DNA from: Candidatus Binatia bacterium
Lineage (GTDB): Bacteria; Desulfobacterota; Binatia; UBA9968; JAJDTQ01
DNA: 64,000 nucleotides
Assembly (NCBI GenBank): GCA_963666515.2
Contig: OY762897.2
Span: forward strand, 832,001-896,000
Reading direction: 5' to 3'
In this document: positions 1 through 27,574 of the stretch, one piece after another
Layout of the letters: every line of letters begins with the position of its first letter
Position numbering within the stretch: the first letter of the stretch is position 1
Program-made: the position numbers and the translations under genes
Notes under the pieces: generated by a model
Told to the model about the DNA's origin: nothing
Seen by the model: the letters and a program-made list of their open reading frames with translations, nothing else
The model's database searches: none

Positions 1-2002
1 TGAGTGTGTTGCCCATGCCGAACATGATCGAGCCCTGCTCCTGGCCCTCGCACCGGAGCGGGTGCATGGCCTGTCCGATGTCGGCCGAGGAGACGTAGGT
101 CAGGCAGCGCGCCCTGCCGGTGTCCGAATCCACCGCCATCACCGCGATGCCCGCGTTGATCTCCCAGGTGCGGATGTCGATGCGGTCCCGGGTGAGGGCC
201 TTGTCCATGCCCCGGCCCACCAGCGTGCCGGTGGTCCTTTCCGCCAGTTCCTCCAGGGTCATCACCGGCTCGCCCCCGCTCGAGAAAGCGTCGTCCTCCA
301 GCGAGAGGTCCCGGGCGTCCCGGTCGGTCAGGGACGCCGCCTGTTGCAGCATGATCTCCCGCAGCTCCTCGGACGCCCGCTTCACCGCGTTGCCCATGAG
401 CACGGTGATGCGGCTGCCGTAGACGCCGGAGGCGCCGGGCGTGGTGCTGGTGTCATAAGGGGCGATGGTGATCCGGTGGATGCCCACGCCGAGCGCCTCG
501 GCCGCGGTCTGGGCCAGCACCGTCTTGGCGCCGCCGCCGATCTCCGGGGCGTTGGCGTGCACCGTGAAGGTGGCGTCGTCCTCGAACACGATCCGGGCGT
601 TGTACTGGGTGGTGGACAGGTCCTTGATGGCGCAGGCGACGCCGGTGCCGATCTTCTCGCCGGGCCGCGCCAGGGACTCGGGCGCCCGTGCGCCGCGGGT
701 CTTCTCGAAGAGGTCCAGGCAGGCCGTCAGCGCTCCGTGCGGGTTGCCGTCCAGCGGCGGCCCGCCGAGCACGTATTTCTCGCCGGCCCGCAGCAGGTTC
801 TTGAGCCGGAACTCGACGGGGTCGTAGCCCAGCTCGGTGCAGATGTGGTCGGTGTGGGCCTCGCACGCCCAGCCGAGCTGGACGCTGCCGATGCCGCGGA
901 AGGCGCCGGCGGGCACCTTGTTGGTGTAGACCGAGTAGCAGTCGGCCCGTGCGTGCTCCACCCGGTAGGGCCCCACGGAGCGGAAGGCCGCCTTGCGCGT
1001 CACCTGGATGCCGAAATCGGCGTAGGCGCCCGTGTCCAGGTAGATTTTCGCTTCCCGGCACAACAGCGTGCCGTCCTCCCGCAATCCCGTGCGGATGTCG
1101 ATCTCGGCGGGATGGCGCCGGGCGGTGAACGCGGTCTCCTCCATGGACATGCGGAGTTGCACCGTCTCCCCGGAGGCGGCCGCCGCCAGGGTCGCCAGGT
1201 GCTCGACGCCGATGTGGCCCTTGGCGCCGAAGCCGCCGCCCACGTAGGGGACCTTCACCGTCACCTGCTCCTGCTCGAGCCCGAACATGCGCGCCAGCTC
1301 GTCGCGCACCGGAAAGGGGGCCTGCGAGGAGGTGTGCACGGTCACGGACCTGCCGTCCACCGCGGCCACCGCGCAGTGGGGCTCCATGGGATAGTGGAAC
1401 AGCGACGGGAAGGAGAAATGGTCCTCGATGACGTGGGCGGCCTCGCGGAACGCCCCCTCCGGGTCTCCCTGGACGAAGTGGGTGCCGCCGCAGTTGTTGC
1501 GGCCGTAGTCGTGGTCGAAGTCGCTTTCGCCCTCGCGGTCGTAGGCGGAGTCGGCGTCGTGCACCAGCGTGCCGCCCTCCATCGCCGACATCATCTCCGA
1601 CACCTGGGGCAGCGGCGTGTAACGCACCTCGACCCGCGCCGCCGCCTCCACCGCCGCGGTCTCGCTGTCGGCCACCACGATGGCCACGGGCTCGCCCTGG
1701 AACCGCACCTTGTCGTGGGCCAGCACCGGCCGGTCCTTCACCGCCTGGCCGTACGGCTTGAGGGTGCGGAGGCATCCCAGCCGGCCGAAGTCGAGGCTCT
1801 CATGGGTCACGATGGTGCGCACGCCGGGGACGGCGCGCGCGTCTTCGAGGTCGAACCCGTCGATGCGCGCGTGCGCGTGGGGACTGCCGATGACCCGGGC
1901 GAACTTCATCCCCGGGATGCTGAGGTCCGCCGTGTAGACGGCGGTTCCGGTGACTTTTTCGTCCGCGTCGAGGCTGCGTACCGATTGGCCCACGTATTTC
2001 AT
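1..2002 (-). CDS. Xanthine dehydrogenase family molybdopterin-binding subunit (3' end runs off the window)
   Basis: Manual minus-strand translation from ATG at 2002: MKYVGQSVRSLDADEKVTGTAVYTADL...SPHAHARI...VRFQGEPVAIV...MEPHCAVA...VGGGFGAK...AGAFRGIG. Absent from the ORF track because no stop lies in the window. Confidence 0.9.
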   Translation of the reverse strand, partial: MKYVGQSVRSLDADEKVTGTAVYTADLSIPGMKFARVIGSPHAHARIDGFDLEDARAVPGVRTIVTHESLDFGRLGCLRTLKPYGQAVKDRPVLAHDKVRFQGEPVAIVVADSETAAVEAAARVEVRYTPLPQVSEMMSAMEGGTLVHDADSAYDREGESDFDHDYGRNNCGGTHFVQGDPEGAFREAAHVIEDHFSFPSLFHYPMEPHCAVAAVDGRSVTVHTSSQAPFPVRDELARMFGLEQEQVTVKVPYVGGGFGAKGHIGVEHLATLAAAASGETVQLRMSMEETAFTARRHPAEIDIRTGLREDGTLLCREAKIYLDTGAYADFGIQVTRKAAFRSVGPYRVEHARADCYSVYTNKVPAGAFRGIGSVQLGWACEAHTDHICTELGYDPVEFRLKNLLRAGEKYVLGGPPLDGNPHGALTACLDLFEKTRGARAPESLARPGEKIGTGVACAIKDLSTTQYNARIVFEDDATFTVHANAPEIGGGAKTVLAQTAAEALGVGIHRITIAPYDTSTTPGASGVYGSRITVLMGNAVKRASEELREIMLQQAASLTDRDARDLSLEDDAFSSGGEPVMTLEELAERTTGTLVGRGMDKALTRDRIDIRTWEINAGIAVMAVDSDTGRARCLTYVSSADIGQAMHPLRCEGQEQGSIMFGMGNTL

Positions 2003-14459: not shown

Positions 14460-17150
14460 TCAGCGTGACGGCACCTCCCCGGGAACGAGACAGGCCAAGT
14501 TCTCGACAACTGGCAACGTGAACGGGAGTTCCAGGGCTTCTATCTGCGACTCGACGTACTGCTTTGCCTTTGTCATCAGATCCGCAACGTCACACGATGG
14601 GTGCACGTCCGCAAACATCGGGCTGCGGGGTTTGTCGGCCAATGGGTTCAGGCGCTGCATCAGTTCCCAGTCACGAACCAGGACCCATTCACCGTCGCCC
14701 TCCAGCCTGGTGGCCACGACGACGGCACGAATGGGGGCCGCCGAGCCGGTGACGCGGTCCTGTACCCTGAACACGAAGATCGGCGCGTCCAGGCCCCGGA
14801 CTGCGCCGAAAGCGCCGTTCAGTTCCACCGCATCGTGAACCGCTCGGTCGACGACCCGCAGTCCGACGCCAGCGACATCTTCCCCGTCCTTCGGTTGTGT
14901 TTCCCGGGCGAAGATAAGGTCGTAGCGATTCACCACGGCGATGGAGAAGTCGTCTCTCCACTCTTCCGGCGGAAGGAAGCTCAGACGCACATCCTCCGGC
15001 TGGTCGGGGCGCCGACCACGGACCGCCAGAATCGCCTTGAAGAACGGCACGAGATCCGGAAGATCCACTAAGGGGATCTGGCCCACTACCGATCCAAAGT
15101 CGAAGCGTGCGACATGGCCGACGAGATGGCGGACTGCCTTCACTGCGTCCTCGCCGCCAAATGTCGCGGTTTCCGTATCGAACCAGTCGTGGAGCGTTTG
15201 CCCACTGAGCGTGGGATCAGCGTAGGCGAACACCTTGGTGAACATGCCCGGCGATGCCATCCCGATCACGAGTTGGCGAATATCCTCGGGGTCGTCCATT
15301 GCCCCCCGAAAAGCCAAGTTGATTCGCTCCAGCTTCTCGTCCAGGAGATCCCAGATCCGGCTCTCCACCGTGTCCGGGTTTCGCACCGTGACTACATCGA
15401 CGGGGTCAGTTTGGCCGTAGCGGCTCAAGCGGCCGACACGTTGATGCAGGCGCATCGGGTTCCACGGCAGATCAACGTGAATCAAGGCGCTACAATGTCC
15501 CTGAAGGTCGACGCCCTCGCCAGCCGCTTCGGTCGAAACAAGGAAGCGCGCGTCCCCCCGGTTGAACCGTGCTGCCGCATCCTGCCGGTCTTCCTTCCAG
15601 CTCGAGATACTGCCAGACGAATCCTGCACATCGTCAAGGGCCCCGTCTCCGTTGATGAACGTCACACATCCGTCGCCGTAGCGCTTGTTCAGCGCGCTCA
15701 TAAGCAGCGCCTGGGTCGCCTTGTACTCTGTGAAGAAGAGCACTGACCTGTCGCGGAACTCTTCGTCGACCAGCGCAAGAATCCGTCCGATTTTCGTCTC
15801 TTCAGTCACCGCGTTTGCGGCCGCCAGCAATTCCTCGAGGGCTGGAATTTCGTTTGGATTGAGATCAACTCCACGCAGACTCTCCGCCACGCGTTCTTCC
15901 AGTTGACTGATCTCGTCCATATTGGCCGGATCGTCCTCAGCCTGCAGCTCTTGCAGTCGTACCAGATCCTCGCGCGAATCCTCCAACTTGGCCTTCGCCT
16001 GCTGCAGCCGGGCAAGTCGTCGAGCGAGGGCTCGTCGCACCGCCGCCACGGAGCTCGACGCCAGCTTCTGCATCGTAATCAGGATTAGAATCACCATGCG
16101 CCGATCCTGGAAACCGAGACCGGCCGCGTATGCTTTTCCGGTCACAATGAACTGAGTAAGCTGCTCGTAGAATCGCGCCTCTTGCGGAGAATATGCGTAC
16201 GTCTCTCGCCGTGACTGCACCGGGGTGAACAGCGGCTTGCCCGACATGTTCGTGACGGATTGCTTGTTGTTGCGGATCATCACGGTCCGGAGTTTTTCGA
16301 CCTGATCCTCAAGAGGCTCCCCGGGATCGAAGTCTTCTGGTCGAAGCAGCTTCAGCAGCGACAAGAATCCCGTGTCCTTGCCCCGATGGGGCGTACCCGT
16401 AAACAGCACCAGGGACTGTACTTTGCCTCGTTCCTGTAAGCGCTCCACCAGTTGATACGACAGCGTGCGGTGACCCTGTTCATCTACGTTCAAGTGGTGG
16501 GCTTCGTCGATGAGCACCAAGTCCCAGGGTTTTGCGTCGAATAGGCGCTCCCAACGATCACCTTTGTCGAGACGCAATGTATGCGCCGAAGCGACTATTC
16601 GGTCTTGGGTATTCCAGAAGTCCGAGGTTTTCGTATCGGCAGCGGGAACGTAGATCGAGACCCGGATGTCAAACATCTCCCGCAAACGCACTTGCCACTG
16701 TTCGACCAAGTTGGCTGGCGCCAGAATAAGCACCCGGCGCACGCGCCCCGCCGACAGGAGTGGCGTGAGGATGAGACCCGCTTCGATGGTCTTGCCAAGT
16801 CCTACATCGTCCGCTACCAGCCATCGCGTAGGCCACGATTCGAGCACGCGCTTGCAGACCCAGAGCTGGTGCGGCAGCAAGGCGATACGGGATCGGGAAA
16901 AGACGCCCCAAGCGTCGTTGACGGAACGAATGCACTCGCCCAGGATTCGCGTGACGACATCCAGAGCGGGGTCGAGATGTCCGGTGGCCACGCGTTCCGC
17001 GATATCCTCCAGCAGTTGGAGGTCGGTGGCCAGGCATTCCTCTATACCGTGCTCAAATCGGACCACAACGCTGTCGCCCTGATCCACGACGACTTGGCCG
17101 GGGCCGAAGCGGGGATGTCGCACTGCGGCCTTCTCGTCAAGTTGTGTCAT
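14460..17150 (-). CDS. SNF2/RapA-like SF2 helicase (896 aa)
   Basis: ADDVGLGKT, DEAHH, TGTPH, STEAAGEGVDLQ, QRVGRLSRYGQ. ATG 17150 overlaps the upstream TGA (TGATG coupling). Confidence 0.92.
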   Translation of the reverse strand: MTQLDEKAAVRHPRFGPGQVVVDQGDSVVVRFEHGIEECLATDLQLLEDIAERVATGHLDPALDVVTRILGECIRSVNDAWGVFSRSRIALLPHQLWVCKRVLESWPTRWLVADDVGLGKTIEAGLILTPLLSAGRVRRVLILAPANLVEQWQVRLREMFDIRVSIYVPAADTKTSDFWNTQDRIVASAHTLRLDKGDRWERLFDAKPWDLVLIDEAHHLNVDEQGHRTLSYQLVERLQERGKVQSLVLFTGTPHRGKDTGFLSLLKLLRPEDFDPGEPLEDQVEKLRTVMIRNNKQSVTNMSGKPLFTPVQSRRETYAYSPQEARFYEQLTQFIVTGKAYAAGLGFQDRRMVILILITMQKLASSSVAAVRRALARRLARLQQAKAKLEDSREDLVRLQELQAEDDPANMDEISQLEERVAESLRGVDLNPNEIPALEELLAAANAVTEETKIGRILALVDEEFRDRSVLFFTEYKATQALLMSALNKRYGDGCVTFINGDGALDDVQDSSGSISSWKEDRQDAAARFNRGDARFLVSTEAAGEGVDLQGHCSALIHVDLPWNPMRLHQRVGRLSRYGQTDPVDVVTVRNPDTVESRIWDLLDEKLERINLAFRGAMDDPEDIRQLVIGMASPGMFTKVFAYADPTLSGQTLHDWFDTETATFGGEDAVKAVRHLVGHVARFDFGSVVGQIPLVDLPDLVPFFKAILAVRGRRPDQPEDVRLSFLPPEEWRDDFSIAVVNRYDLIFARETQPKDGEDVAGVGLRVVDRAVHDAVELNGAFGAVRGLDAPIFVFRVQDRVTGSAAPIRAVVVATRLEGDGEWVLVRDWELMQRLNPLADKPRSPMFADVHPSCDVADLMTKAKQYVESQIEALELPFTLPVVENLACLVPGEVPSR

Positions 17151-20100
17151 CACTGCTCCAGGCCGAACCGACGGCGCAGTTCCGCGTTCAAGGCCACGTG
17201 TCGAAGGGGTATGTCGAAAGCACAATGGAGATTTGGGGTTTCCGTCCCCAACTTGGACGCCAGAAAGTTGAATATGGCACGTGCCTTCTCCGGATTGGAA
17301 AGACTTTCTTCCGACCTCAACCCGAGAGGCCTTAGGAAATCCAGGACCTGTTCGGAAGGAACCCAGCAGTACGGGAAGAGATGTTCGCCCGTAACAACTT
17401 CCAGACGCACTAGTTCTCGAAGTACCCAGTGGAGACCCATGTTGAGGGGCGCAGGCGGGGCATCGAAGTGTGTACCCGCGCCCGTGAGCGCTTCGTCGAC
17501 GCGTGGCGCAAGCAAGTGAGTGACTGAAGAAATGCTTTCAGGACGTCGGCCCGCCGATTTGAGCAAGCGAACATATACTGCCCGATACCGACTGAGTTGG
17601 TAGATTGCGGGAAACAGCGACATCCAATGCGGATACGTCAGCTTGGCCAAGGCGGTGTCGTGCCAGTCTCGCAGCACTCCCATCCAGGCATCGGCATCGT
17701 CAGGTGCCCTGAACACGCCCCACCATCCTTTCCTGTGGGCCAGCTCGAGAAAGTTTCGGTGTTGATCGTCATTTGTACGACCAAGGCTTCGGCACGCGCC
17801 TAGCACCAGCAGGGCGAGCCAATCATCTTCAGAATCGGCTTGCAGCCTGCCCGCTAGCCCGTCTCGCCGCAACCACTCGGGCCATACGTGCTTCTCGTAG
17901 GCAGCGATCACTGCCTTGCGCTCAGTGGCATCGTCCCACCATTCCACTAGTTGCCGATAGAATGCCTGAGAATCGAGCCCAACTGGCGCTGGCGGCTCCT
18001 CTGGAACCTGGGACCGGTCGGGAAACAGGGCACCCAGAAGTCTCTGGCGACGCCAAGGTTCCTCGCATAAGTCGCCGAGCATTCCGCGGACATCCTCGTA
18101 GTGCCGAAGCCACGGTGGGCGGGCGTTGAGAGGGACGAGATACGGAAGAACACGCTCTTGCAATTCTCCATCCAACAGATAGCGAACCGCAGCGGGGCGA
18201 AGGCCTGTTTCAAGGTCCATGTACCATTTCGCAATTTCGGCGGCATCAACGCGATGCTGCATCCGAAACCATCGGAATACGCTCCAATCTTCCCTGCATT
18301 CAATGTATGCCGGATCAAGAACCCGGGCGTCGGGAGCGAAGGCAGACCGCAGGAATTCCTCCCAGTGGTCTCCGTCGGCGTCATCCCGCAATACGGAGAC
18401 TTCTCGCAGCAGCAATCTTCGCAGTGGCTGAAGGCTTCCGTCCGCTGCTTGGGCTTGAATCTTGCCTCGCCAAGCTGCGCCGTGCGGATCGTTGGACATC
18501 AGGTTCCAAGCCGGATCTTGAGAAAGAGGGCGAATTGCGTGCAGCCGAGCCGGCGTCAAACGGTAATCCCACCGTCGAGCCAGTTCCGCCAACAGGTCGC
18601 ACGGGCGAAGCGGGGTCGAGCGGATGTGATCGTCCATTCCTGGGAAGTTGCGCAGTGGAAGGAGGAGCCGCTCGGTTTCCTCCGATACGACGAGGTGGCT
18701 TTCCAACAAACGCGCGAAATCTTCATCGTCCACTTCAGCGAGGGCGGCGCATAGCTCCGGGTTGTCCAAACCATCGACTGCGACTTTCCACGACATCCCG
18801 GAATTCAGCGGGGGCAACAGTGGGGAAAATGGCGCCGGAAGTCCGGTTGGCACGACGCCACGGGCGGCCATCCATGCGGATAGCCCGCGACCGTTCCCAT
18901 GCAATCTGCAAAGAAACATCCGGCGTAGCTTGTCGGAGGTCGCCGTGCCGGAAACGAGAGCCTTCCAGAGTGACGGCAGAAAGCTTCGACCGTCAACCCC
19001 AATCATGGGTCCATTGGGTTCATACGCTGCCTGTCGAGTATCGGCCAACACTTCGTGAAGGTTGAGCAGGCCTTCTCCGAGCGCTTCGCCGAGGTCACTG
19101 ACGGCTCGAAGGGTCGTATCGTCATCGAGCGACACATGGGTTCTGCCAGGGTCGAGCTTGAAGGGTCCGTTAACGACGTATCCGCAGCCCCAACTCTCGC
19201 TCGTGGGCGTGACGTTCCAGAGAAACGGCACATCCGGGTTGAAAGCGGTGGGAACGCCATCTCGAAGCCCGATGGCCAACGCTGTGGTACCCATATTGTC
19301 CCGTCCCGCGTCCGCAGGTCGGAAACGAAGGACTCGCCAGCGGCCGGGATGGTTGGGGAAATCGGTCTCGGCACCGATCGACCACCCGGGCGCGCCGTCG
19401 ATCTGCTTTCCGTCGAAGACGTGGGTCCCGGGAAACGGTCCGCCCTCCACAACGACTTCTTGCACCTGCCGTGCGAATACTGGCAACAGGACACGCGCGC
19501 AGGCAAAACGACCGAACATCTCCGAGATCAGCGTGTGTGCTTCGACATCCGAGCGCAGGGGCAGCCGGACGCGCGTTGCTCGACGGCCTTCAACCATCCA
19601 TGAATCCACATTGTCGGCGACGGCCTGTTCCTGCGGCAGTAACCCTCCGGCAATGGAGAAGGCGATGAAGCCGCTGACCACGGACGGAGACGACGAGACG
19701 AGGTGGACGGATTTGAAGCCGAGGCCAAAGCGCCCGGTGGTCGAAGATGAAGAGGACTCTCCAGGAGCCTCGCCGGGTTTGCCGCTCAGATTCATGAGCA
19801 TCATGAAATAGAGGTCCTGATCCCACTGACGCTCTCGCCCGGCGGGGAATACAGCGCCGCCAGAGTCGTTGATCGGACGCCCCCAGTGCATGATGTCCAC
19901 GGTGGGTACGCCGCCATGTTCGTGGATTCGGACAAAGAGACGACGGGTGGCAAGAGGCAGCGGTCCGCCGTTGATCTCGGCGGCCTCTGCAAGCGCGTCG
20001 TCGGCGTTCTGCACGAGTTCCAACAGCACGCTGTCGCGTCCGTAGCCGTAGCGCCGCATCATCTCGTTGACTCGCTTCCAAAGGAATGTCCGATGCTCGG

Positions 20101-23100
20101 GCGCTTCGACGAGGGACGCCAAGTGGTCCAGGGCTTCTCTCTCGATCTTGAGCTTGACCAAGTTGATCGGCTGTGCCTGCTCCCGCTTCCTTTGCGCCTG
20201 CTCGGCCTTCCTGAGGGCGTCCCTGAGCGGTTCGTTGTCCTTGACATCGAGCTGTTGAAGCGTGAGCGGCAGATGCGCCTTGATAGAGGCTAGCACGGGA
20301 GCGAGGTTCGCTTGGGAGGTGGTGCTCCATCGGGACCACCAACGGTTTACCTGCTCGCGGTCCAGCTTAAGGTACCCGCAGGCCCATCTCTCGACGGTGC
20401 CGCCGAGCAGGTGCAAGAGTTCGGACGTGGAGCGGTTCTGCGGCTCGACGTCACGCAGAGTGATCTCCCAGAAGGGGCCAAGCGGCTTGAGCATATACTG
20501 CGAGCGGGGGTACCGAATGGGGTCGATGGCGAACAGCGTGTCGTCGTCGGGTTCGGCTTCCATCTCCAGCTGTGATCCCAGGACATTGACCGCACTCACA
20601 CGGTCACTATGCGCGACCTGTGGTCGGACGAAGACACTGATATCTGCACAGGGATCCTGTCCGCTCGGGCCGACGAATTCGCTACGTATTGCGTCGATGC
20701 TGACGTCTTCGCCAAGCCATTGCTCAGCAAGCGTCGCGATAGTCCCGTGCAGGCCGCTGCCCAGCAAACTGAGGAATGCACCGACAGCGGCGGGCTGGAG
20801 TCGTCCACGCCAAGGCTCGAAGTACTTTTCCAACGTGTCCAGTCCGTAGCCACCCCAGCCGGGTTGGATAAGTTCCGGTCCAGGGCTCCGGTCGTCGCCG
20901 GTAAGTTGGAGAATTGGGCGGAGTTCGGAAACCAGGCGGTGCCGACGCGCGATGCCGGTTTCGGATCGTGCGACGTCGCGGCTCTCATGCCAATTGCCGT
21001 CCTGGGTCGGTAGGTGGATTTTTGGCAGGACATGCGTGAAAAAGTTTTCCGTCTTTGCGAAACAGCCCAAGAGTGTGAGGAACATACGCCCGTCGGAAGA
21101 TCCCTTCGGCGGTCTTTTGTCGGCAAGGCCGGTCAGCATTTGGATCTGACGGTTCGGGGGGATAGGCGCACAGAGTGCTTTTGCCAACCTCAAGAGCAGT
21201 TCCGAATCATCTCCGAGTCCACCGTCACCGTGTCGCAGAACATTCTTGACGAAGTGCACCAGCTTCCATCCGCGATGGCTGCTGGAGAGCGTCGTTTCAA
21301 GTGCGCACTCGAGCAACGGAACGGTGACCAGTTCTGGTTGCGGTAGGACAAGCCACGCGCCGTCATCCACCTGCGCAACCTTGTCGGAATCCAGGGCGTC
21401 GACCATCCGCCGTACTTGGATGTTGCGATTTGGTCGCCCAAGTGCTTCGCGGACCACCGGCTCCGCTACGCGCCAAATCTCTCGCTCGACGATGTCGGGA
21501 AGCCGCTTGTCCTTAAGGGCACCGGCCGCCGCGAGGTCGGCGATGGCATCCAGCACTGCTTGCGGGGCGACGAGCACCGCATCCGGCGCAAGACCCCCGC
21601 CATCGCGACGCGGGAGCCAACATCCGTCCCTCAGTAGTCCACGCAGTACACGGACTTGCGGCAGCGTCATTTGGCCGTCGGCGGGACATACCGCCTGCAC
21701 GATCTGCCTGGCAAAACGCCACGGACGCGAATCCTCCAGCATGAGTCGAAGGACGCCGTCGCGGTCCATGACGGGAAGGGACTCGTAGAGATGGGCAAGC
21801 TGGGGATACGGATCCAGGATGCGCACTTCTGCAGCGAGTTCCGGCGGCAATGGAAATTCGTCCGTCGCCCCCGTCGAACGCCGTGCGAGTTGATCGAACG
21901 CCCCGCGACTTCCGTCAACGCCCCGGTGAAGTGGCATCCTTTGCCAGCGTCGGCGATCCTCCGGTTCAGGGCTGTACAAGCTTCGGAGTAGAAGCAGTGC
22001 CTCCTCGTTGCCAAGCACCGTCCAGTCGACAGGTTGTTCCAGGCAGAGGCAGTCACCGAGAATCCGATGTAGCACTTTGAGGTCGGCCCGACTGACGGAT
22101 AGTGCGTTGGCGAGATCTTGTGAAATCGTATCGACCCACCTGCCTTGAACCGTGCGCCATGACTGGTCCATGAGTCGCAACAGGATGGCCAGTGCTCGCG
22201 CATTGTCGTCGTCGCCGTGGAAAAGCTCGGTATCCTGCCCGACGACATCTACCGCGCGCCCTGCAAGGAGCGCACGTGCGGCCAAACGAACACTGTCGTT
22301 GTCCGTGATGTTCGGCGCGAGCCGATTGAGCAGCCGTGTCCGATGGGCAGGCTCGGCGAACCGTTCGGCTCGAAGCACTGCAGCGGCCAATGCCTCTGGT
22401 GTGGGTGACGGCGCATCGGCGATGGATCCCACCACGTCACCGCTCACGAACCAAGCGGCTTCGTCGAGCGCCTTCGCAAGTTCCATGACGGCCTGCTTCG
22501 GATCGGCGAGTCGTTCCGGCCGGATTCTGTCTGTGCCGTTGGAGTCCGTAAACTCCGAAGCCGGACTGGCGAATACCCGGCGGTTCTCGATTTGGCGGCG
22601 CAACTCGACGATGGACCAAGCTTCCTCCCGATCCTCCGGTAACCTGACCGCCCGCAGCAACGGCACCTTAACCAGATGCTGAACCATGGGGTGGTTATGT
22701 CGTCGTCTGGATAGCAGCGTCTCGGCAAGGACAAGCCGGGAGTGCCGCAATGGCTCCGATTCGCCTTCCACTTCCAAGCGTCGTCCCAAGGTCAACAGCG
22801 CACGATCCAACCGTTCCTGGTCAAGCTGCGGGGCCGTCGGCGACCCCTCTGGACGCCGTCCGAACGGCAGCGGGAACAGCCCTTCGCCTATCATCTCTTC
22901 TGCAGCAAGCTCGACAACGGCCTGTTGGCTTTCCACAGGTGTTTCGACCAGCCACGCCTTCGGCAGCCCGTGGCACAGATCTCGCCACGCCTCCCGCAAC
23001 TCGTCGCGAGATTCTCTCGAGACTGAACGTCGGGTCGTATGGGCAAGCGCGCCGTCGCCGATCTTTCCCGCAAGCCATCGAGCGACTGCGGCGGCGCGTA

Positions 23101-24130
23101 TATCTCCGTCACGGGCGTCCTGACCGATGACATGGAAGACAACTCCCTTGATCCAATGCAGAGATTGCAGAGACCCGAACACGTCGCCCGGAATGCAGTT
23201 CAGGAGGCGTTCGAGCGGGTCGACGGTCCAATCGTCGAGGTCACCTGCGAAACGGGGGACAGCGTCGTCGATGAACACGTCATCGCCCGTGCGTTGGCTG
23301 CAAGGGTCCACGAACTGCCTGCGAACAGCCTCGGGCGCCTGACTCCACTTTGGGATCGACAGAACAGGACGTGCATTCGCGTCAAGCGCTCTCCATCGAA
23401 CCCCGTCGGTCGCAACAACTGGTAGGAGCCAATGTCGTCGGGTGACGAACTCCAAGCGGTTCTTGACCATTTCCGAGCCGATGACCGCCTCTAGCAGCCT
23501 CCGTACTGCGCGCTCGCCGACTCCATCTACCGCATTGGCGAGGGCGCTTGGCAGCAAAGGAAGCAGCAGCTCTTCGCACAGCGTCCTGTTCCAACGAACG
23601 CGCATGTCACGTTCACTTGCGGCATCGCCAATATCGTCGGTGACGCCGGGAATGGACCGGCGGTCCTGGGACGGCCAGAAGTAGCCGCACAGGATGATTT
23701 CCCAGGCAGGCGAGGGACCGTGGCTCTCCACGATCGCACTGGAACTCGGCTCGGGATCGTCGTCCAGCGGCAGGAACACGGCCCAGCGGAGCCGTGTTCC
23801 CGAAAGCTGGTCATCCAAGTCGCTGGGTCGCAGTACGGTAACTGCGGCGTGAGCGAGAGCCTTCCGCGGCACCGGGGAGTAGCGACCGTGTCGCCACTGC
23901 GGGGATTGCGGCCAATCGGGCTGCGACCGGAGTCGAGACAAGCTTTCGTTGCCGCGTACCTCGATTCCTGCGACGGACCAGCTCCGATTGTCGGAGATAA
24001 TTTCGCCCTCGAAGGCCTGGTCCGAGAAATACCCGCGGTCGTCCGTATATCGCCCGACCCATCCCACCGTCTGCCGGGTCACACACACTAGCGAGGCTTC
24101 GCCTCAGACCGACGAGGGGGTAAGGGGATT

Positions 24131-24234
24131 GGCTCCGGTCGCTTGTAGCAGGGATTGAATCCCTGGTCATGGGACCTTGCAAGGTCGGACCTCAAAGGGT
24201 CAAATGGGCATAAAAGCCCGAAGCAACCGGAGCC
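24131..24234 (+). promoter_or_regulatory. Highly structured leader (five-way junction) sequestering the RBS of the element ORF
   Basis: 13/14-bp closing stem (24131-24144 with 24221-24234) enclosing four hairpins; GGAG lies in the 3' arm just before ATG 24239. Confidence 0.65.
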
Positions 24235-24238
24235 GGAC

Positions 24239-25846
24239 ATGAGCCTACCACAAACCGTAGCGGAAGTATTGCGCGATCACGTGACGCTGGAATACGAGTC
24301 GGTGGATCGCCTGTACTTGAACCTGTATGTGCCGCAGTTGCAGAGCGTGGGCGGGGTAGTGGGGTATCTGCACAAGCACCATGGCCAGCGGTTTGCGTCG
24401 ACGGTGGCGCTGGCGCCCAAGAGTCGGGAGTTCGTGCAGGCGGTGAAGGACTTTGCGGAGCGGGAGCAGATCGAGGTGGTGCACTTCAAGAAGGGCCAGC
24501 GCAAGGACGAGGTGACGCAGGAGTACCTGGGGCGGTTCAAGGGAACCGAAGGGGTTTTGTACATCGGGATAGCGCAGGAGAAGGCCCGTGTGATGCGCAC
24601 CGAGCGGCGCCGGAACCCGGACACCGGGGTCACCTATCCGTGGGTGGTCTCGTCTACCGCGATGGTCAACCATGTGTATTTCTATTGCGTGGACAAACAG
24701 GCGGGGCCGTTCTTCATCAAGTTCTGCACCTACTTCCCGTACAACGGCAAGCTGTGCCTCAACGGCAACGAGTACGCCAAGTGCCAGTTGCGCGAGCGCG
24801 GCATCCCGTTCGAGGCTTTGGACAACGGCGTGCGCTGCTGCGGAGACCCCGAGGCGCTGCAACAGATCTGCGAAGGCTTCGATGCCGCTTTCATCGACAG
24901 ACTGGCGCGCAAGTGGTTCGATCGCCTGCCGCATCCGTATACGCCTCAGGACCGTCGCGCCGGTCTGCGCTACGACATCTCCATCCTGCAAGCGGAGTTC
25001 AGCCTGACCCAGGTGCTCGACCGCCCGGCCTCGGGCCGCGTCTTTTTCGAGGACGTGATCCGCGAGAACCTCGATCTCGGTCGCCCCAGCCAGGTGCAGT
25101 TGATCTTCCAGCGCCGGGTCACCCGGCGCACCCCCGGTCGGTTCCGTACCCGGGTCATCACCGCAGGCGTCACCCCTTCCTTGCACGTGGACTACAAGCA
25201 CTCGCGCATCAAGCAGTACCACAAGGAAGGGCAGGCGCTGCGCACCGAGACCACCGTCAACGACACCTATGACTTCGCCCTGGGCCGGCGGCTGTCTAAC
25301 CTGGCGGCGTTGTGCCAGGTCGGCTTCACAGCCAACCGTCGTCTGTTGCAGATAGAAACCATCAGCCACGACTGTGCCCTGGGTGAAGACGAACTCCAAC
25401 GCCATCAACGCGGCCTGGAGTTCCACGGACAACGCGCCTCGGCCCTGCGCTTCGCCGATGAGCGCGTGCAGGCTCTGATGCAGGCCCTGCTCTTGTTCAC
25501 TCTTTCGGCCCGCGGCTTCTCCAACCGCGACCTGCGCGGGCACCTCGGTGCACTCCTGGGCCTCGATCCCAGTCCAATGCGCCCGGGCCGAATGAGTTAC
25601 GACCTGAGACGCCTGCGCCTGCACGGCCTGATCGAGCGCATCCCCGGCGCCTACCGCTACCACTTGACCGAACACGGCCTCAAGGTGGCGATGTTCTACA
25701 CGCGTGTCTACAACCGCATCCTTCGCCCCGGCCTGGCCCATCTTGCGCCCGACGCCGTGAGCGGCAATACCAAGACCCATCGGCGCTTTGCCGCCATCAC
25801 CAGGAACCTCGATGCCATTTGCGATGAGGCGAAGCTCGTCGCTTAA
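24239..25846 (+). CDS. Putative transposase of unclassified type (535 aa; Rep_trans-like Y-K...R-E motifs, C-terminal winged HTH)
   Basis: Only coherent ORF in the element: VDRLYLNL, QAEFSLTQ, SRIKQYHKEGQALRTETTVN, and wHTH-like GFSNRDLR...SYDLRRLRLHGLIERIPGAYRYHLT. GGAG precedes the ATG. Confidence 0.75.
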   Translation: MSLPQTVAEVLRDHVTLEYESVDRLYLNLYVPQLQSVGGVVGYLHKHHGQRFASTVALAPKSREFVQAVKDFAEREQIEVVHFKKGQRKDEVTQEYLGRFKGTEGVLYIGIAQEKARVMRTERRRNPDTGVTYPWVVSSTAMVNHVYFYCVDKQAGPFFIKFCTYFPYNGKLCLNGNEYAKCQLRERGIPFEALDNGVRCCGDPEALQQICEGFDAAFIDRLARKWFDRLPHPYTPQDRRAGLRYDISILQAEFSLTQVLDRPASGRVFFEDVIRENLDLGRPSQVQLIFQRRVTRRTPGRFRTRVITAGVTPSLHVDYKHSRIKQYHKEGQALRTETTVNDTYDFALGRRLSNLAALCQVGFTANRRLLQIETISHDCALGEDELQRHQRGLEFHGQRASALRFADERVQALMQALLLFTLSARGFSNRDLRGHLGALLGLDPSPMRPGRMSYDLRRLRLHGLIERIPGAYRYHLTEHGLKVAMFYTRVYNRILRPGLAHLAPDAVSGNTKTHRRFAAITRNLDAICDEAKLVA

Positions 25847-26752
25847 ACTACCGAGCGTTACAACTCGCGATGGCCTACGATAGTATTCATGTACGAACGA
25901 AGTCCAGTTCAAATATCTTGTCTTCCTGAGTCAAGATCCTGTCGATCAAGGATTCTAGTCTTTCCAGGTTGCGTAGACTCTCCGGCCCTGCTGCACGCTC
26001 TGCTTCGATAGTGTGAAGATGCCCGCACTGCGCCAGCAGCAATGCGGCGGGCGTCGCGCATCTGATCCAGGCGCAGAGATCATCCGTTTGCGGGCAATGT
26101 GTCCCCAACCCGTACTGGTGACCTTCCACACCGCGATCCAGATGTTGGGGAAGTCGCAACGGTACCCACAGCAGGAGGCCGTTGCTCGAATTCCCAATGA
26201 GTTCCGTCGTCACTGACCGCAGCCGCTCGACGTCAATCTCGTGCCAGTCGGGATGCAGGGGATCGGCTTCTCCGCTTTCTCCGGTCCCCGCCCACGGGTT
26301 CAGAACGCCGGCACGCCACTTCCCATCCTGGGCTCCGATGTAGAGAAATGCCTCGCATATATGGAAGACGCTCTTCAACCCAATACCGAAGGTGCCGATC
26401 TTGCCAACCTCGTCCTCCTTGGATCCGCCGACGGCCTTATGCAGCGCCTCACGATCTTGGTCGGGGAACTCCCCGTCGTTCGCAACCAGGAGTGCAGGTC
26501 CGTGGAGCAGACTGTTTCGCGCATCGGTCCAACCGCGCTCCAGCACCGCGAGCTTGAGACGGCGTGCACCTGCGTCGTCGGCATTTTGGACCAGTTCCCG
26601 GAACAGGGCGCGTCCATCCCCGGCATCCTTGTAGACGTCAGCCAGAAGGGTCTGGATTGCCTTGATCTCGTCGAGCGGGCTTCGGACGATGCCGGAGTTT
26701 GGTCGGACATCGACGTCGGGCAGCCGTGCTTGGTCAGACCCGACCGTAGGCA

Positions 26753-27574
26753 TCAGTCGTCGAAGAATGCGAGAGTCCGGATCTCGATGCTCTCCCGCGG
26801 CGGCGCGTCCGCCGGGGTGCTGGGGTGCTCGAAGGCGGAATGGGCGGAAAAGCGCGCCCGGCCGTCGGTCTTCGAGTCGTAGCACTTGAAGACGATGGCC
26901 TCGTCGGGCTGCATGTCCGGGAAGTAGTAGAACCGGTGGCCGGGGCTGTAGGTCAGGTGGTAGGTCTCGCCGAGCCGGTTGGGGTGGGGCCGCACGGTGG
27001 GGATGAGGTCCTCGGTGGCGATGCTCTGGGCGTCGCACATGGCCAGGGGATCCCGCAGCACCGGGTTCAGCATGCCGCGCCACACCTGGACCACCGCGAA
27101 GCGGCGCTTGAACAGATCGTCGGCCTCGTCGGGCAGCAGGTCGCGCACCCGTTCCGGGCCGGACCACTCGGTGTAGTCGTTGTGCACGTTCTGGACCGGT
27201 GCCTTGGCGCCCTTTTCCTCGTAGCCGGAGCGCAGGGTATGGTCGAAGATCAGCACCCGGCAGGCGCCGGTGTTCTCCTTGATCAGCGCCTCCATCTCGG
27301 GATAGTAGACCGCCCGGATCTCGTCCTCGTCGAAGAAGTCGGTCATCTTCGTGGGCTGGGGCCGCAGGGCGAAACCGTGGTGCTCAATGGAGAGCTCGGG
27401 GTGGTTGCGGCCGTTCCGGACCGAGGCCGTGTGGGTCTCGTACGTCCGGTCCTTGTGCGGATAGCCGAGGCTGGGCTTGTCCCAGGTGGTCACGGGCCGA
27501 GGGCCGGTGTGCACCATGTAGTTGAAGCTCGCTTCAACGGCGTCATCGAGAGTTTCCGCTACCGCTGTGGCCAT
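26753..27574 (-). CDS. CmcJ/NvfI-family oxidoreductase
   Basis: YYPEME, RVLIFDHTLR, VHNDYT, VQVWR, PLAMCD, FKCYDS, AHSAF, PPRESIEIR motifs. Confidence 0.85.
   Translation of the reverse strand: MATAVAETLDDAVEASFNYMVHTGPRPVTTWDKPSLGYPHKDRTYETHTASVRNGRNHPELSIEHHGFALRPQPTKMTDFFDEDEIRAVYYPEMEALIKENTGACRVLIFDHTLRSGYEEKGAKAPVQNVHNDYTEWSGPERVRDLLPDEADDLFKRRFAVVQVWRGMLNPVLRDPLAMCDAQSIATEDLIPTVRPHPNRLGETYHLTYSPGHRFYYFPDMQPDEAIVFKCYDSKTDGRARFSAHSAFEHPSTPADAPPRESIEIRTLAFFDD

Follow-up and report, generated by a model that had tools for sequence, protein, structure and literature searches.

A recently active insertion sequence at CTAG sites in Candidatus Binatia, best read as a member of an undescribed family

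Results

The DNA analyzed here, hereafter the window, is a stretch of 64,000 nucleotides from the genome of a Candidatus Binatia bacterium (GCA_963666515.2, contig OY762897.2, positions 832,001 to 896,000 of the forward strand), in which a sacsin-like gene on the minus strand is interrupted by a 1863-bp element (window positions 24092–25954) bracketed by CTAG at 24088–24091 and at 25955–25958. The element starts with CGAGGCTTCG... and ends with ...ATCAAGGATT; at the left boundary, ...cacacaCTAG passes into CGAGGCTTCGCC..., and at the right boundary, ...GATCAAGGATT is followed by CTAGtctttcc.... Two minus-strand open reading frames (ORFs; 17150–24088 and 25887–27167) are separated by the element, and the Pfam SACS (sacsin) domain is present in both gene halves. 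Scripted deletion of 24092–25954 with one CTAG kept gave the minus-strand junction GAAAGACTAGTGTGTGTG, which encodes ERLVCV in frame, and an ORF of 7737 nt from the first ATG, as compared with 7041 nt when zero and 6456 nt when two CTAG copies were kept. Together, the ORFs, the Pfam matches, and the deletion test delimit a C-terminal part of 2313 codons (17150–24091, minus strand) and an N-terminal part running from the first ATG to the junction (25955–26753, minus strand). No terminal inverted repeats were found, as none of the 25 longest of the 157 inverted-repeat pairs in the element links the two termini. A sequence-only reading of this DNA had placed the element between two CTAG copies, had claimed that its removal with one CTAG fuses the sacsin halves through ERLVCV into a 7737-nt frame that zero or two copies would break, and had described the ends as not being inverted repeats; the sequence agreed on the boundaries, the deletion reproduced the fusion and both shortened frames exactly, and the repeat search bore out the description of the ends.

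The only conserved ORF of the element (24239–25846, plus strand) encodes a presumed transposase of 535 amino acids (aa), P0003, with an unclassified N-terminal part of ~420 aa and a winged helix at residues ~430–500. In addition, the element has a structured 5′ leader (24120–24241, plus strand) and two unlike ends: a left-end motif, CGAGGC-TTC-GCCTCAGACCGACGAG (24092–24116, plus strand), which is kept across phyla and contains a 5-bp palindrome (24093–24097 with 24101–24105), and a right end (25847–25954, plus strand) with a terminal block at 25917–25954 (CTTGTC...GAGTCAAG...TCAAGGATT), defined from 61 related loci and the window. A promoter scan found no sigma-70-like sites in 24000–26050. 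On the opposite strand, a 555-aa antisense ORF (24245–25912, minus strand) covers nearly the whole element. We rejected it as a gene, given that the longest antisense open stretch varied from 173 to 535 codons in 14 relatives and was full-length in two of them; it is probably a by-product of codon usage.

The 1871-nt stretch that includes both CTAGs occurs in this genome (G000) in nine copies at 100% identity, all of them flanked by CTAG on either side, and the DNA outside is unrelated between copies. CTAG is ~12-fold depleted in the genome, with 1201 occurrences as opposed to 14779 expected from base composition, and 18 of these 1201 are junctions of the nine copies. Genome-wide, G follows CTA in only 1201 of 18427 CTA words, compared with nine of nine at the insertions, so the use of this rare word reflects specificity and not chance. 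At three of the nine sites, the longest open frame across the junction (8364, 2949, and 1245 nt, stop to stop) appears only when one CTAG is kept; the 2949- and 1245-nt frames belong to ORFs interrupted by the copies at G000:C1:1796292 (L005) and G000:C1:1046029, respectively.

Four public sequencing runs of the same organism (X1–X4) were compared as contigs over window 23092–26958. The sacsin site was empty in X2, X3, and X4, whose contigs join 24087 to 25955 and skip 1867 nt, with four letters at the join assignable to either side. One 5138-nt contig of X3, as deep as the flanks, bridges both parts of the gene without the element. The site was occupied in X1, where the flank contigs continue into the element. 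Across all four runs, the depth ratio of element to flanks ranged from ~6.5 to 12, as expected for about nine copies. A second empty site was found in a related species (G008; flanks 98% identical) at the orthologue of the C1:1796292 copy, where the flanks overlap by exactly one CTAG. Three further sites searched in G008 gave no match, weak matches only, and divergence at the junction, respectively, and no orthologue of the sacsin site was found by DNA in 27 genomes of the genus. The protein was absent from all 40 sampled relatives, 24 of them of the same genus, and 12 of 400 further genomes from the phylum had it, mostly at 23–51% identity; this absence in close relatives and sparse presence in the phylum argue for recent acquisition and expansion. 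The element is a recently active, autonomous insertion sequence (IS). Searching it against its own genome and relatives, a check proposed by the sequence-only reading, thus returned nine identical copies flanked CTAG/CTAG and two single-CTAG empty sites, and the claim of a real insertion event stood, given the unrelated flanks of the copies and a site occupied in X1 and empty in X2–X4.

A decayed fragment of a related element is also present in the genome (G000:C1:2645461–2645643). It is 90–92% identical to window 24175–24267 and 24594–24686, with the intervening 327 nt missing, and its joint (24266 to 24594) occurs in contigs of all four runs. The runs also contain many contigs that are only 90–99% like the element over window 24000–26000, and many different left-flank contexts, with 14 loose-ended contigs at 24085–24088 in X2; variant family members and further insertion sites coexist in the samples of these runs. 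The coding strand of the element lies on the leading strand in six of the nine copies and on the lagging strand in three, a small sample.

P0003 had no family match in Pfam, NCBIfam, PHROGs, or PADLOC, and its N-terminal ~420 aa had no PDB sequence match. When 25 diverse members (29–96% identity) were scanned singly at E ≤ 1 against Pfam and NCBIfam models, transposase, recombinase, or Rep models matched none of them, and the weak winged-helix matches were AbiEi_4 in six, HTH_27 in five, and HTH_12 in three members. Similarly, a profile search of PDB sequences returned only winged-helix regulators, over residues 445–520 and at E values of 0.1–0.3. An exhaustive search of cluster representatives (50% identity) recovered 10355 relatives at E ≤ 0.001 and 1214 at E ≤ 1e-30, with all 8000 scored candidates significant. 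Wherever these relatives carry a name, it is “hypothetical protein”, apart from a single “ArsR family transcriptional regulator” at 25% identity, and their Protein Atlas clusters carry “hypothetical protein” only. The contigs bearing the gene are mostly 1.7–3 kb long, as expected for a repeat that has collapsed during assembly, and the family is abundant on plasmids of cultured Burkholderia, Rhodococcus, and Mycobacterium. The search for longer, fused forms of the protein was negative, which is weak evidence, and the element had no match in phage records.

In at least 160 of 164 full-length sequences (29–99% identical), Q113, E114, Y147, Y149, D152, G156, P167, N175, D195, N196, Q251, E253, K325, Y327, K329, R335, E337, N341, and D345 are kept; D23 and R24 are invariant as well in the 25-sequence alignment. 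The same 164 sequences have no invariant Ser, no invariant His, and no His-hydrophobic-His motif. Residues 143–197 appear to form a strand-strand-strand-helix-strand arrangement, with Asp ending the first and last strands, and an LDNG motif is placed after a hydrophobic strand. The invariant Asp/Glu, Lys/Arg, and Tyr residues of the ~420-aa domain would suit a metal-dependent nuclease or strand-transferase. In hhalign comparisons, the family reached a probability of 0.5% against 23 IS110 proteins and 0.3% against 14 IS630 proteins; given that the control, IS110 against IS630, two families with a common fold, also reached 0.3%, these values exclude family membership and not a common fold. The relative of 25% identity (L108:2941–4455) is a single copy on a Paraburkholderia plasmid, between cytochrome c genes, and retains most invariant residues; it may represent a domesticated member or a very divergent one.

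The left end and the ATG are 147 nt apart, and the region between them folds with z = −3.65. The leader has a closing stem (24131–24144 with 24221–24234) around four hairpins, and the Shine-Dalgarno sequence GGAG (24229–24232), just 5′ of the ATG, lies in the 3′ arm of that stem. When 77 sources were searched with a covariance model based on 17 relatives, the structure was recovered in 40 places, one of them in the window (30.8 bits, E 7.7e-5). In the resulting alignment, which was fitted to the model and thereby favours it, 94.2% of cells were paired, 19 of 27 pairs had changed on both sides, and none of 500 shuffles scored as high; as a control, partners slid by 1–3 columns paired in only 28–56% of cells. 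No Rfam family corresponds to the leader. Because the 3′ arm of the stem contains the GGAG before the ATG, the leader most likely keeps translation low by occluding the ribosome-binding site. A bridge or guide RNA role found no support: in 26 of 26 elements, the longest pairing between leader and ends was no better than in shuffles, a comparison with low power for guides of 4–7 nt, and the sole exception in this test came from one subfamily, in which the left end recurs internally as an inverted copy.

To define the ends, we scanned one genome per species and obtained 80 loci at 55–74% identity to the element, with record titles that named Gamma-, Beta-, and Alphaproteobacteria, Acidobacteriota, Actinomycetota, Verrucomicrobiota, Myxococcota, Chloroflexota, Gemmatimonadota, Armatimonadota, Spirochaetota, and Planctomycetota. 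Similarity begins and ends sharply in nine genomes with two to five copies. The ends of the family are asymmetric and conserved, reading CTA followed by (A/G)CGAGGCnnnGCCTCAG... on the left and ...TCAAGnnnnCTA followed by G on the right. After the flank, the left end reads CTA-A-CGAGGC-nnn-GCCTCAGACCGACGAG; this motif was present in 65 of the 80 loci, with the pattern unmatched in the other 15. Among 56 distinct left-end 24-mers, the 3-nt centre of the palindrome varies and its pairing is kept, including the compensatory variants GGGGC/GCCCC and GGGGT/ACCCC. The right end of the family lies ~45 nt past the stop codon and reads AAAACTTGACTCAA-(about 20 nt)-TCAAGnnnnCTA-G, the flank following; the terminal block in the window corresponds to the family motif AACTTGACTCAA-(about 20 nt)-TCAAGnnnn.

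The tetranucleotide before the left motif was CTAA in 57 of the 65 loci, CCAG in five, TTAG in one, and CTAG in one, with a contig end in the last. Given CTAA on the left and CTAG on the right, only CTA is common to both junctions, and a 4-bp host duplication does not hold for the family. The sequence-only reading had offered two accounts of CTAG, a 4-bp target site duplication or a core common to element end and target; the second fits better than the plain duplication. The window element has G at the fourth left position, where most relatives have A. This base is constant within a lineage (nine of nine copies in this genome, five of five in another, and both copies in other pairs). On the right, G follows CTA in 77 of 95 unique junctions counted across all lineages, and the base after the right CTA differs (G and A) between two 98%-identical copies in one genome. 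Upstream flanks show a preference for A at −4 (63 of 98) and T at −1 (46 of 98) that has no mirror image downstream, indicating asymmetric target recognition. The simplest reading is a universal CTAG target with a fourth left base borne by the element. For the window, this assigns CTA at both junctions to the common core, the G of the left junction (24088–24091) probably to the element, and the G of the right junction (25955–25958) to the host. For the A-type relative L095, a search for an empty site found no orthologous flank in 60 genomes of the genus.

Some relatives have further features at their ends. In a subfamily mostly from Acidobacteriota (L067:547–640, L070, L075, L076, L082, L084, and L085), the terminal ~24 nt of the left end are repeated in inverted orientation ~30 nt inward, giving a 25-bp hairpin or cruciform that includes CTAA (DNA fold z = −7.7 in L067); for the short end hairpins of the window element, folding is on a par with shuffles (z about 0). 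In L093:3075–3200, a second 44-nt right-end block directly follows the right-end CTA and starts at a CTAA formed by the stop codon, which may reflect use of a pseudo left cleavage site or replication slippage. L072 carries a passenger gene on the opposite strand between left end and leader (194–613, minus strand), and L098 has a similar insert. The L072 gene encodes a PDDEXK_3 (PD-(D/E)XK nuclease) protein (E 2.7e-40) and is either cargo or a nested insertion.

Metagenome contigs were scanned for a right-end terminus placed directly against a left-end start, and at least 120 stretches with this junction motif were found. Of 80 loci fetched from the scan, 71 lacked a transposase ORF and are mini-elements, built from a left end (~26 nt), a variable middle, and a right end (~46 nt), with unit lengths of 85, 93, ~124, ~165, and ~220 nt. 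Frequently, two to five units follow one another head to tail, or the units adjoin a full element; arrays of two identical 85-nt mini-elements were present at three sites, with the order flank-CTA/A...CTA/A...CTA/g-flank. Because 85-nt mini-elements consisting of just these parts occur at several sites, ~26 nt of left end and ~46 nt of right end are sufficient in cis, and because mini-elements lack the leader, the leader is not needed in cis. The genome of the window holds no mini-element or tandem copy, and only the one decayed fragment.

Discussion

Judged by Pfam and NCBIfam models, record annotation, and the literature, with ISfinder comparison not part of this basis, the element is best read as a member of an undescribed IS family. 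The account that we favour, with moderate confidence, is that this family moves by core-sharing cut-and-join at its ends and target, conservatively and independently of terminal inverted repeats, and that a structured leader limits translation of the protein. The target is 5′-CTAG-3′, to which upstream A at −4 and T at −1 add a weaker preference, and the protein would act on two unlike ends, the 25-nt left motif with its small palindrome and the ~46-nt right block ending in TCAAGnnnnCTA. It would cut sequence-specifically at the CTA/TA core in both element ends and in the target, and joining through the common core would be conservative, probably via an excised right-end/CTA/left-end junction form; the net insertion is 1867 bp, and CTA stands at both junctions afterwards. 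Movement of this kind would resemble that of IS110/IS607-type elements more than a transposition in which terminal inverted repeats serve as guides. Core sharing would account for three features, namely the unlike ends, the empty site with exactly one CTAG, and the head-to-tail arrays, the latter being favoured because every insertion leaves a CTAG beside a bound right end.

Several points weigh against this account. Both junctions read CTAG in this genome, so that host and element bases are not separable here, and in a less parsimonious alternative the left junction would contain a host CTAA/CTAG word and the right junction an element-borne CTAG, as in IS200/IS605. Head-to-tail arrays are also produced by rolling-circle elements. 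No circle or right-end/left-end junction of the window element was seen in the run contigs, which drop rare forms. Finally, the invariant acidic residues (D152, D195, and E253/E337) and their pattern of hydrophobic strands could belong to an RNase-H-like DDE core, with which cut-and-paste and a 2-bp TA duplication would agree equally well.

Close parallels in anatomy to the core-sharing account come from IS110/IS1111 elements, which likewise have no terminal inverted repeats, unlike left and right ends, a short core common to junction and target, and one ORF after a structured non-coding leader in the left end. However, none of the 25 members matched DEDD_Tnp_IS110 or Transposase_20, in line with the hhalign probability of 0.5%, and the target of the element is only 4 bp with weak flanks, compared with the 11–14-nt RNA-specified site of IS110. 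Moreover, unlike in IS110, complementarity between leader and ends does not exceed that of shuffles, and the mini-elements lack the leader. For IS607 and other elements with serine or tyrosine recombinases, the same 25 members had no Resolvase or Phage_integrase match at E ≤ 1. A bolder version of our account is that the protein founds a new superfamily of transposases or recombinases, unrelated or related in fold only to DDE, DEDD, HUH, serine, and tyrosine enzymes, which would join two unlike ends to CTAG via a CTA/TA core, possibly with the leader RNA as a cofactor in trans; we offer this version only tentatively.

The strongest competing explanation, which we regard as a credible minority view, is a highly divergent DDE transposase with an RNase-H fold, acting by cut-and-paste at CTAG with either duplication of TA, as in IS630/Tc1, or exact excision, as in piggyBac, and with its asymmetric ends bound by two different DNA-binding parts of the protein. 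CTAG is the classic target of IS630, with TA duplicated, and YTAR is the target of IS5; the element shares with IS630/Tc1-mariner and IS5 a palindromic CTAG target with TA at its centre. Every junction seen is compatible with C-TA-[element]-TA-G, that is, with TA duplication inside CTAG, though none proves it, and a single-CTAG empty site fits an ancestral site as well as exact excision. The acidic residues that are invariant in 160–164 of 164 sequences, together with the LDNG motif after a hydrophobic strand, also speak for such an enzyme. However, the element differs from IS630/Tc1-mariner and IS5 in having no terminal inverted repeats beyond the CTAG palindrome itself and no recognisable DDE domain (DDE_3, DDE_Tnp_1), as none of the 25 members matched any Pfam or NCBIfam DDE model at E ≤ 1, and the hhalign probability against 14 IS630 proteins was 0.3%, in a test that is blind to fold. 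The family cannot share the 4-bp host duplication expected at YTAR for IS5, because 57 of 65 loci pair a left CTAA with a right CTAG. The comparison with piggyBac runs similarly. piggyBac elements have inverted terminal repeats and duplicate the host TTAA on both sides; like them, the element targets a 4-bp palindrome centred on TA and shows an exact single-copy site where it is missing, but it differs in that its left fourth base is not the same as the right one in most relatives. The sequence-only reading had held that the element does not look like a DDE, IS200/605, IS91, or IS110 type. This agrees with the lack of any family model match in the 25 members, and for DDE it holds at the level of sequence families only.

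It is somewhat less probable, and in our view unlikely, that the family is already known, for instance under an orphan or ISNCY heading in ISfinder, with hidden Markov model libraries and annotation lagging behind. Given its abundance on plasmids of cultured Burkholderia, Rhodococcus, and Mycobacterium, a member may have been named. On the other hand, the records read “hypothetical protein” and once “ArsR family transcriptional regulator”, no NCBIfam IS model matched, and full-text literature searches, including one with the left-end motif string, returned no description of such an element.

We consider movement by a single-stranded or rolling-circle route, as in IS200/IS605, IS91/ISCR, and Helitrons, improbable. 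It would involve hairpin-guided cleavage 3′ of CTA, both in the left flank and at the right end, and insertion 3′ of CTA(R) without duplication, and it would accommodate the asymmetric ends, the same trinucleotide at both cleavage positions, the subterminal palindromes at both ends, with a long left hairpin in some subfamilies (L067, z = −7.7), and the common head-to-tail arrays. The element resembles IS91/ISCR and Helitrons in its asymmetric ends without inverted repeats, a fixed short word at the cleavage positions, a palindrome inside the 3′ end, and head-to-tail arrays and junctions, arrays being common to other mechanisms too. Helitrons, as described in PMC4778049, end in CTAG-3′, with a palindrome 11 nt upstream, and form circles with head-to-tail junctions. 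Likewise, subterminal palindromes at both ends, insertion beside a fixed short word, and an exact empty site, as well as a possible lack of any conventional duplication, recall IS200/IS605. However, the protein has no HUH/Y2 signature and no helicase, its 164 sequences contain neither a His-hydrophobic-His motif nor an invariant His, and no Y1, Y2, or Rep model, including Y2_Tnp, matched any of the 25 members. PF04986 was absent from the genome, but this search matched no control genome either. The CTAG target differs from the AT or GTTC/CTTG of IS91/ISCR and Helitrons. In contrast to IS200/IS605, the protein is 535 aa long and had no Y1_Tnp match (0 of 25, E ≤ 1), and insertions show no strand bias relative to replication (six leading to three lagging, a small sample); the short hairpins of the window element, with z about 0, also do not favour hairpin guidance.

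Nothing favours reading the element as an artefact of assembly, as a gene for a homing endonuclease, or as a remnant prophage, and these readings are refuted by nine identical copies in unrelated contexts, boundaries conserved across phyla, a site occupied in one public run and empty in others, and the lack of any match in phage records.

Returning to the core-sharing account of an undescribed family, its anatomy matches no named IS family: a strict 4-bp target, no inverted repeats, and exact empty sites occur together with mobile derivatives of 85 nt, head-to-tail arrays, and a covarying leader. The enzyme may therefore represent a novel type of protein that cuts and joins DNA at specific sequences, which would also make it interesting as a tool. 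Because several sequencing runs exist for the cultured or enriched organism in which the element is active, the mechanism is directly testable. For the family at large, the 10355 cluster representatives indicate an abundant mobile element spanning multiple phyla that is currently invisible to genome annotation: its copies are labelled as hypothetical proteins or regulators, its mini-elements are missed, and the genes that it disrupts, such as the sacsin-like gene described here, are read as two.

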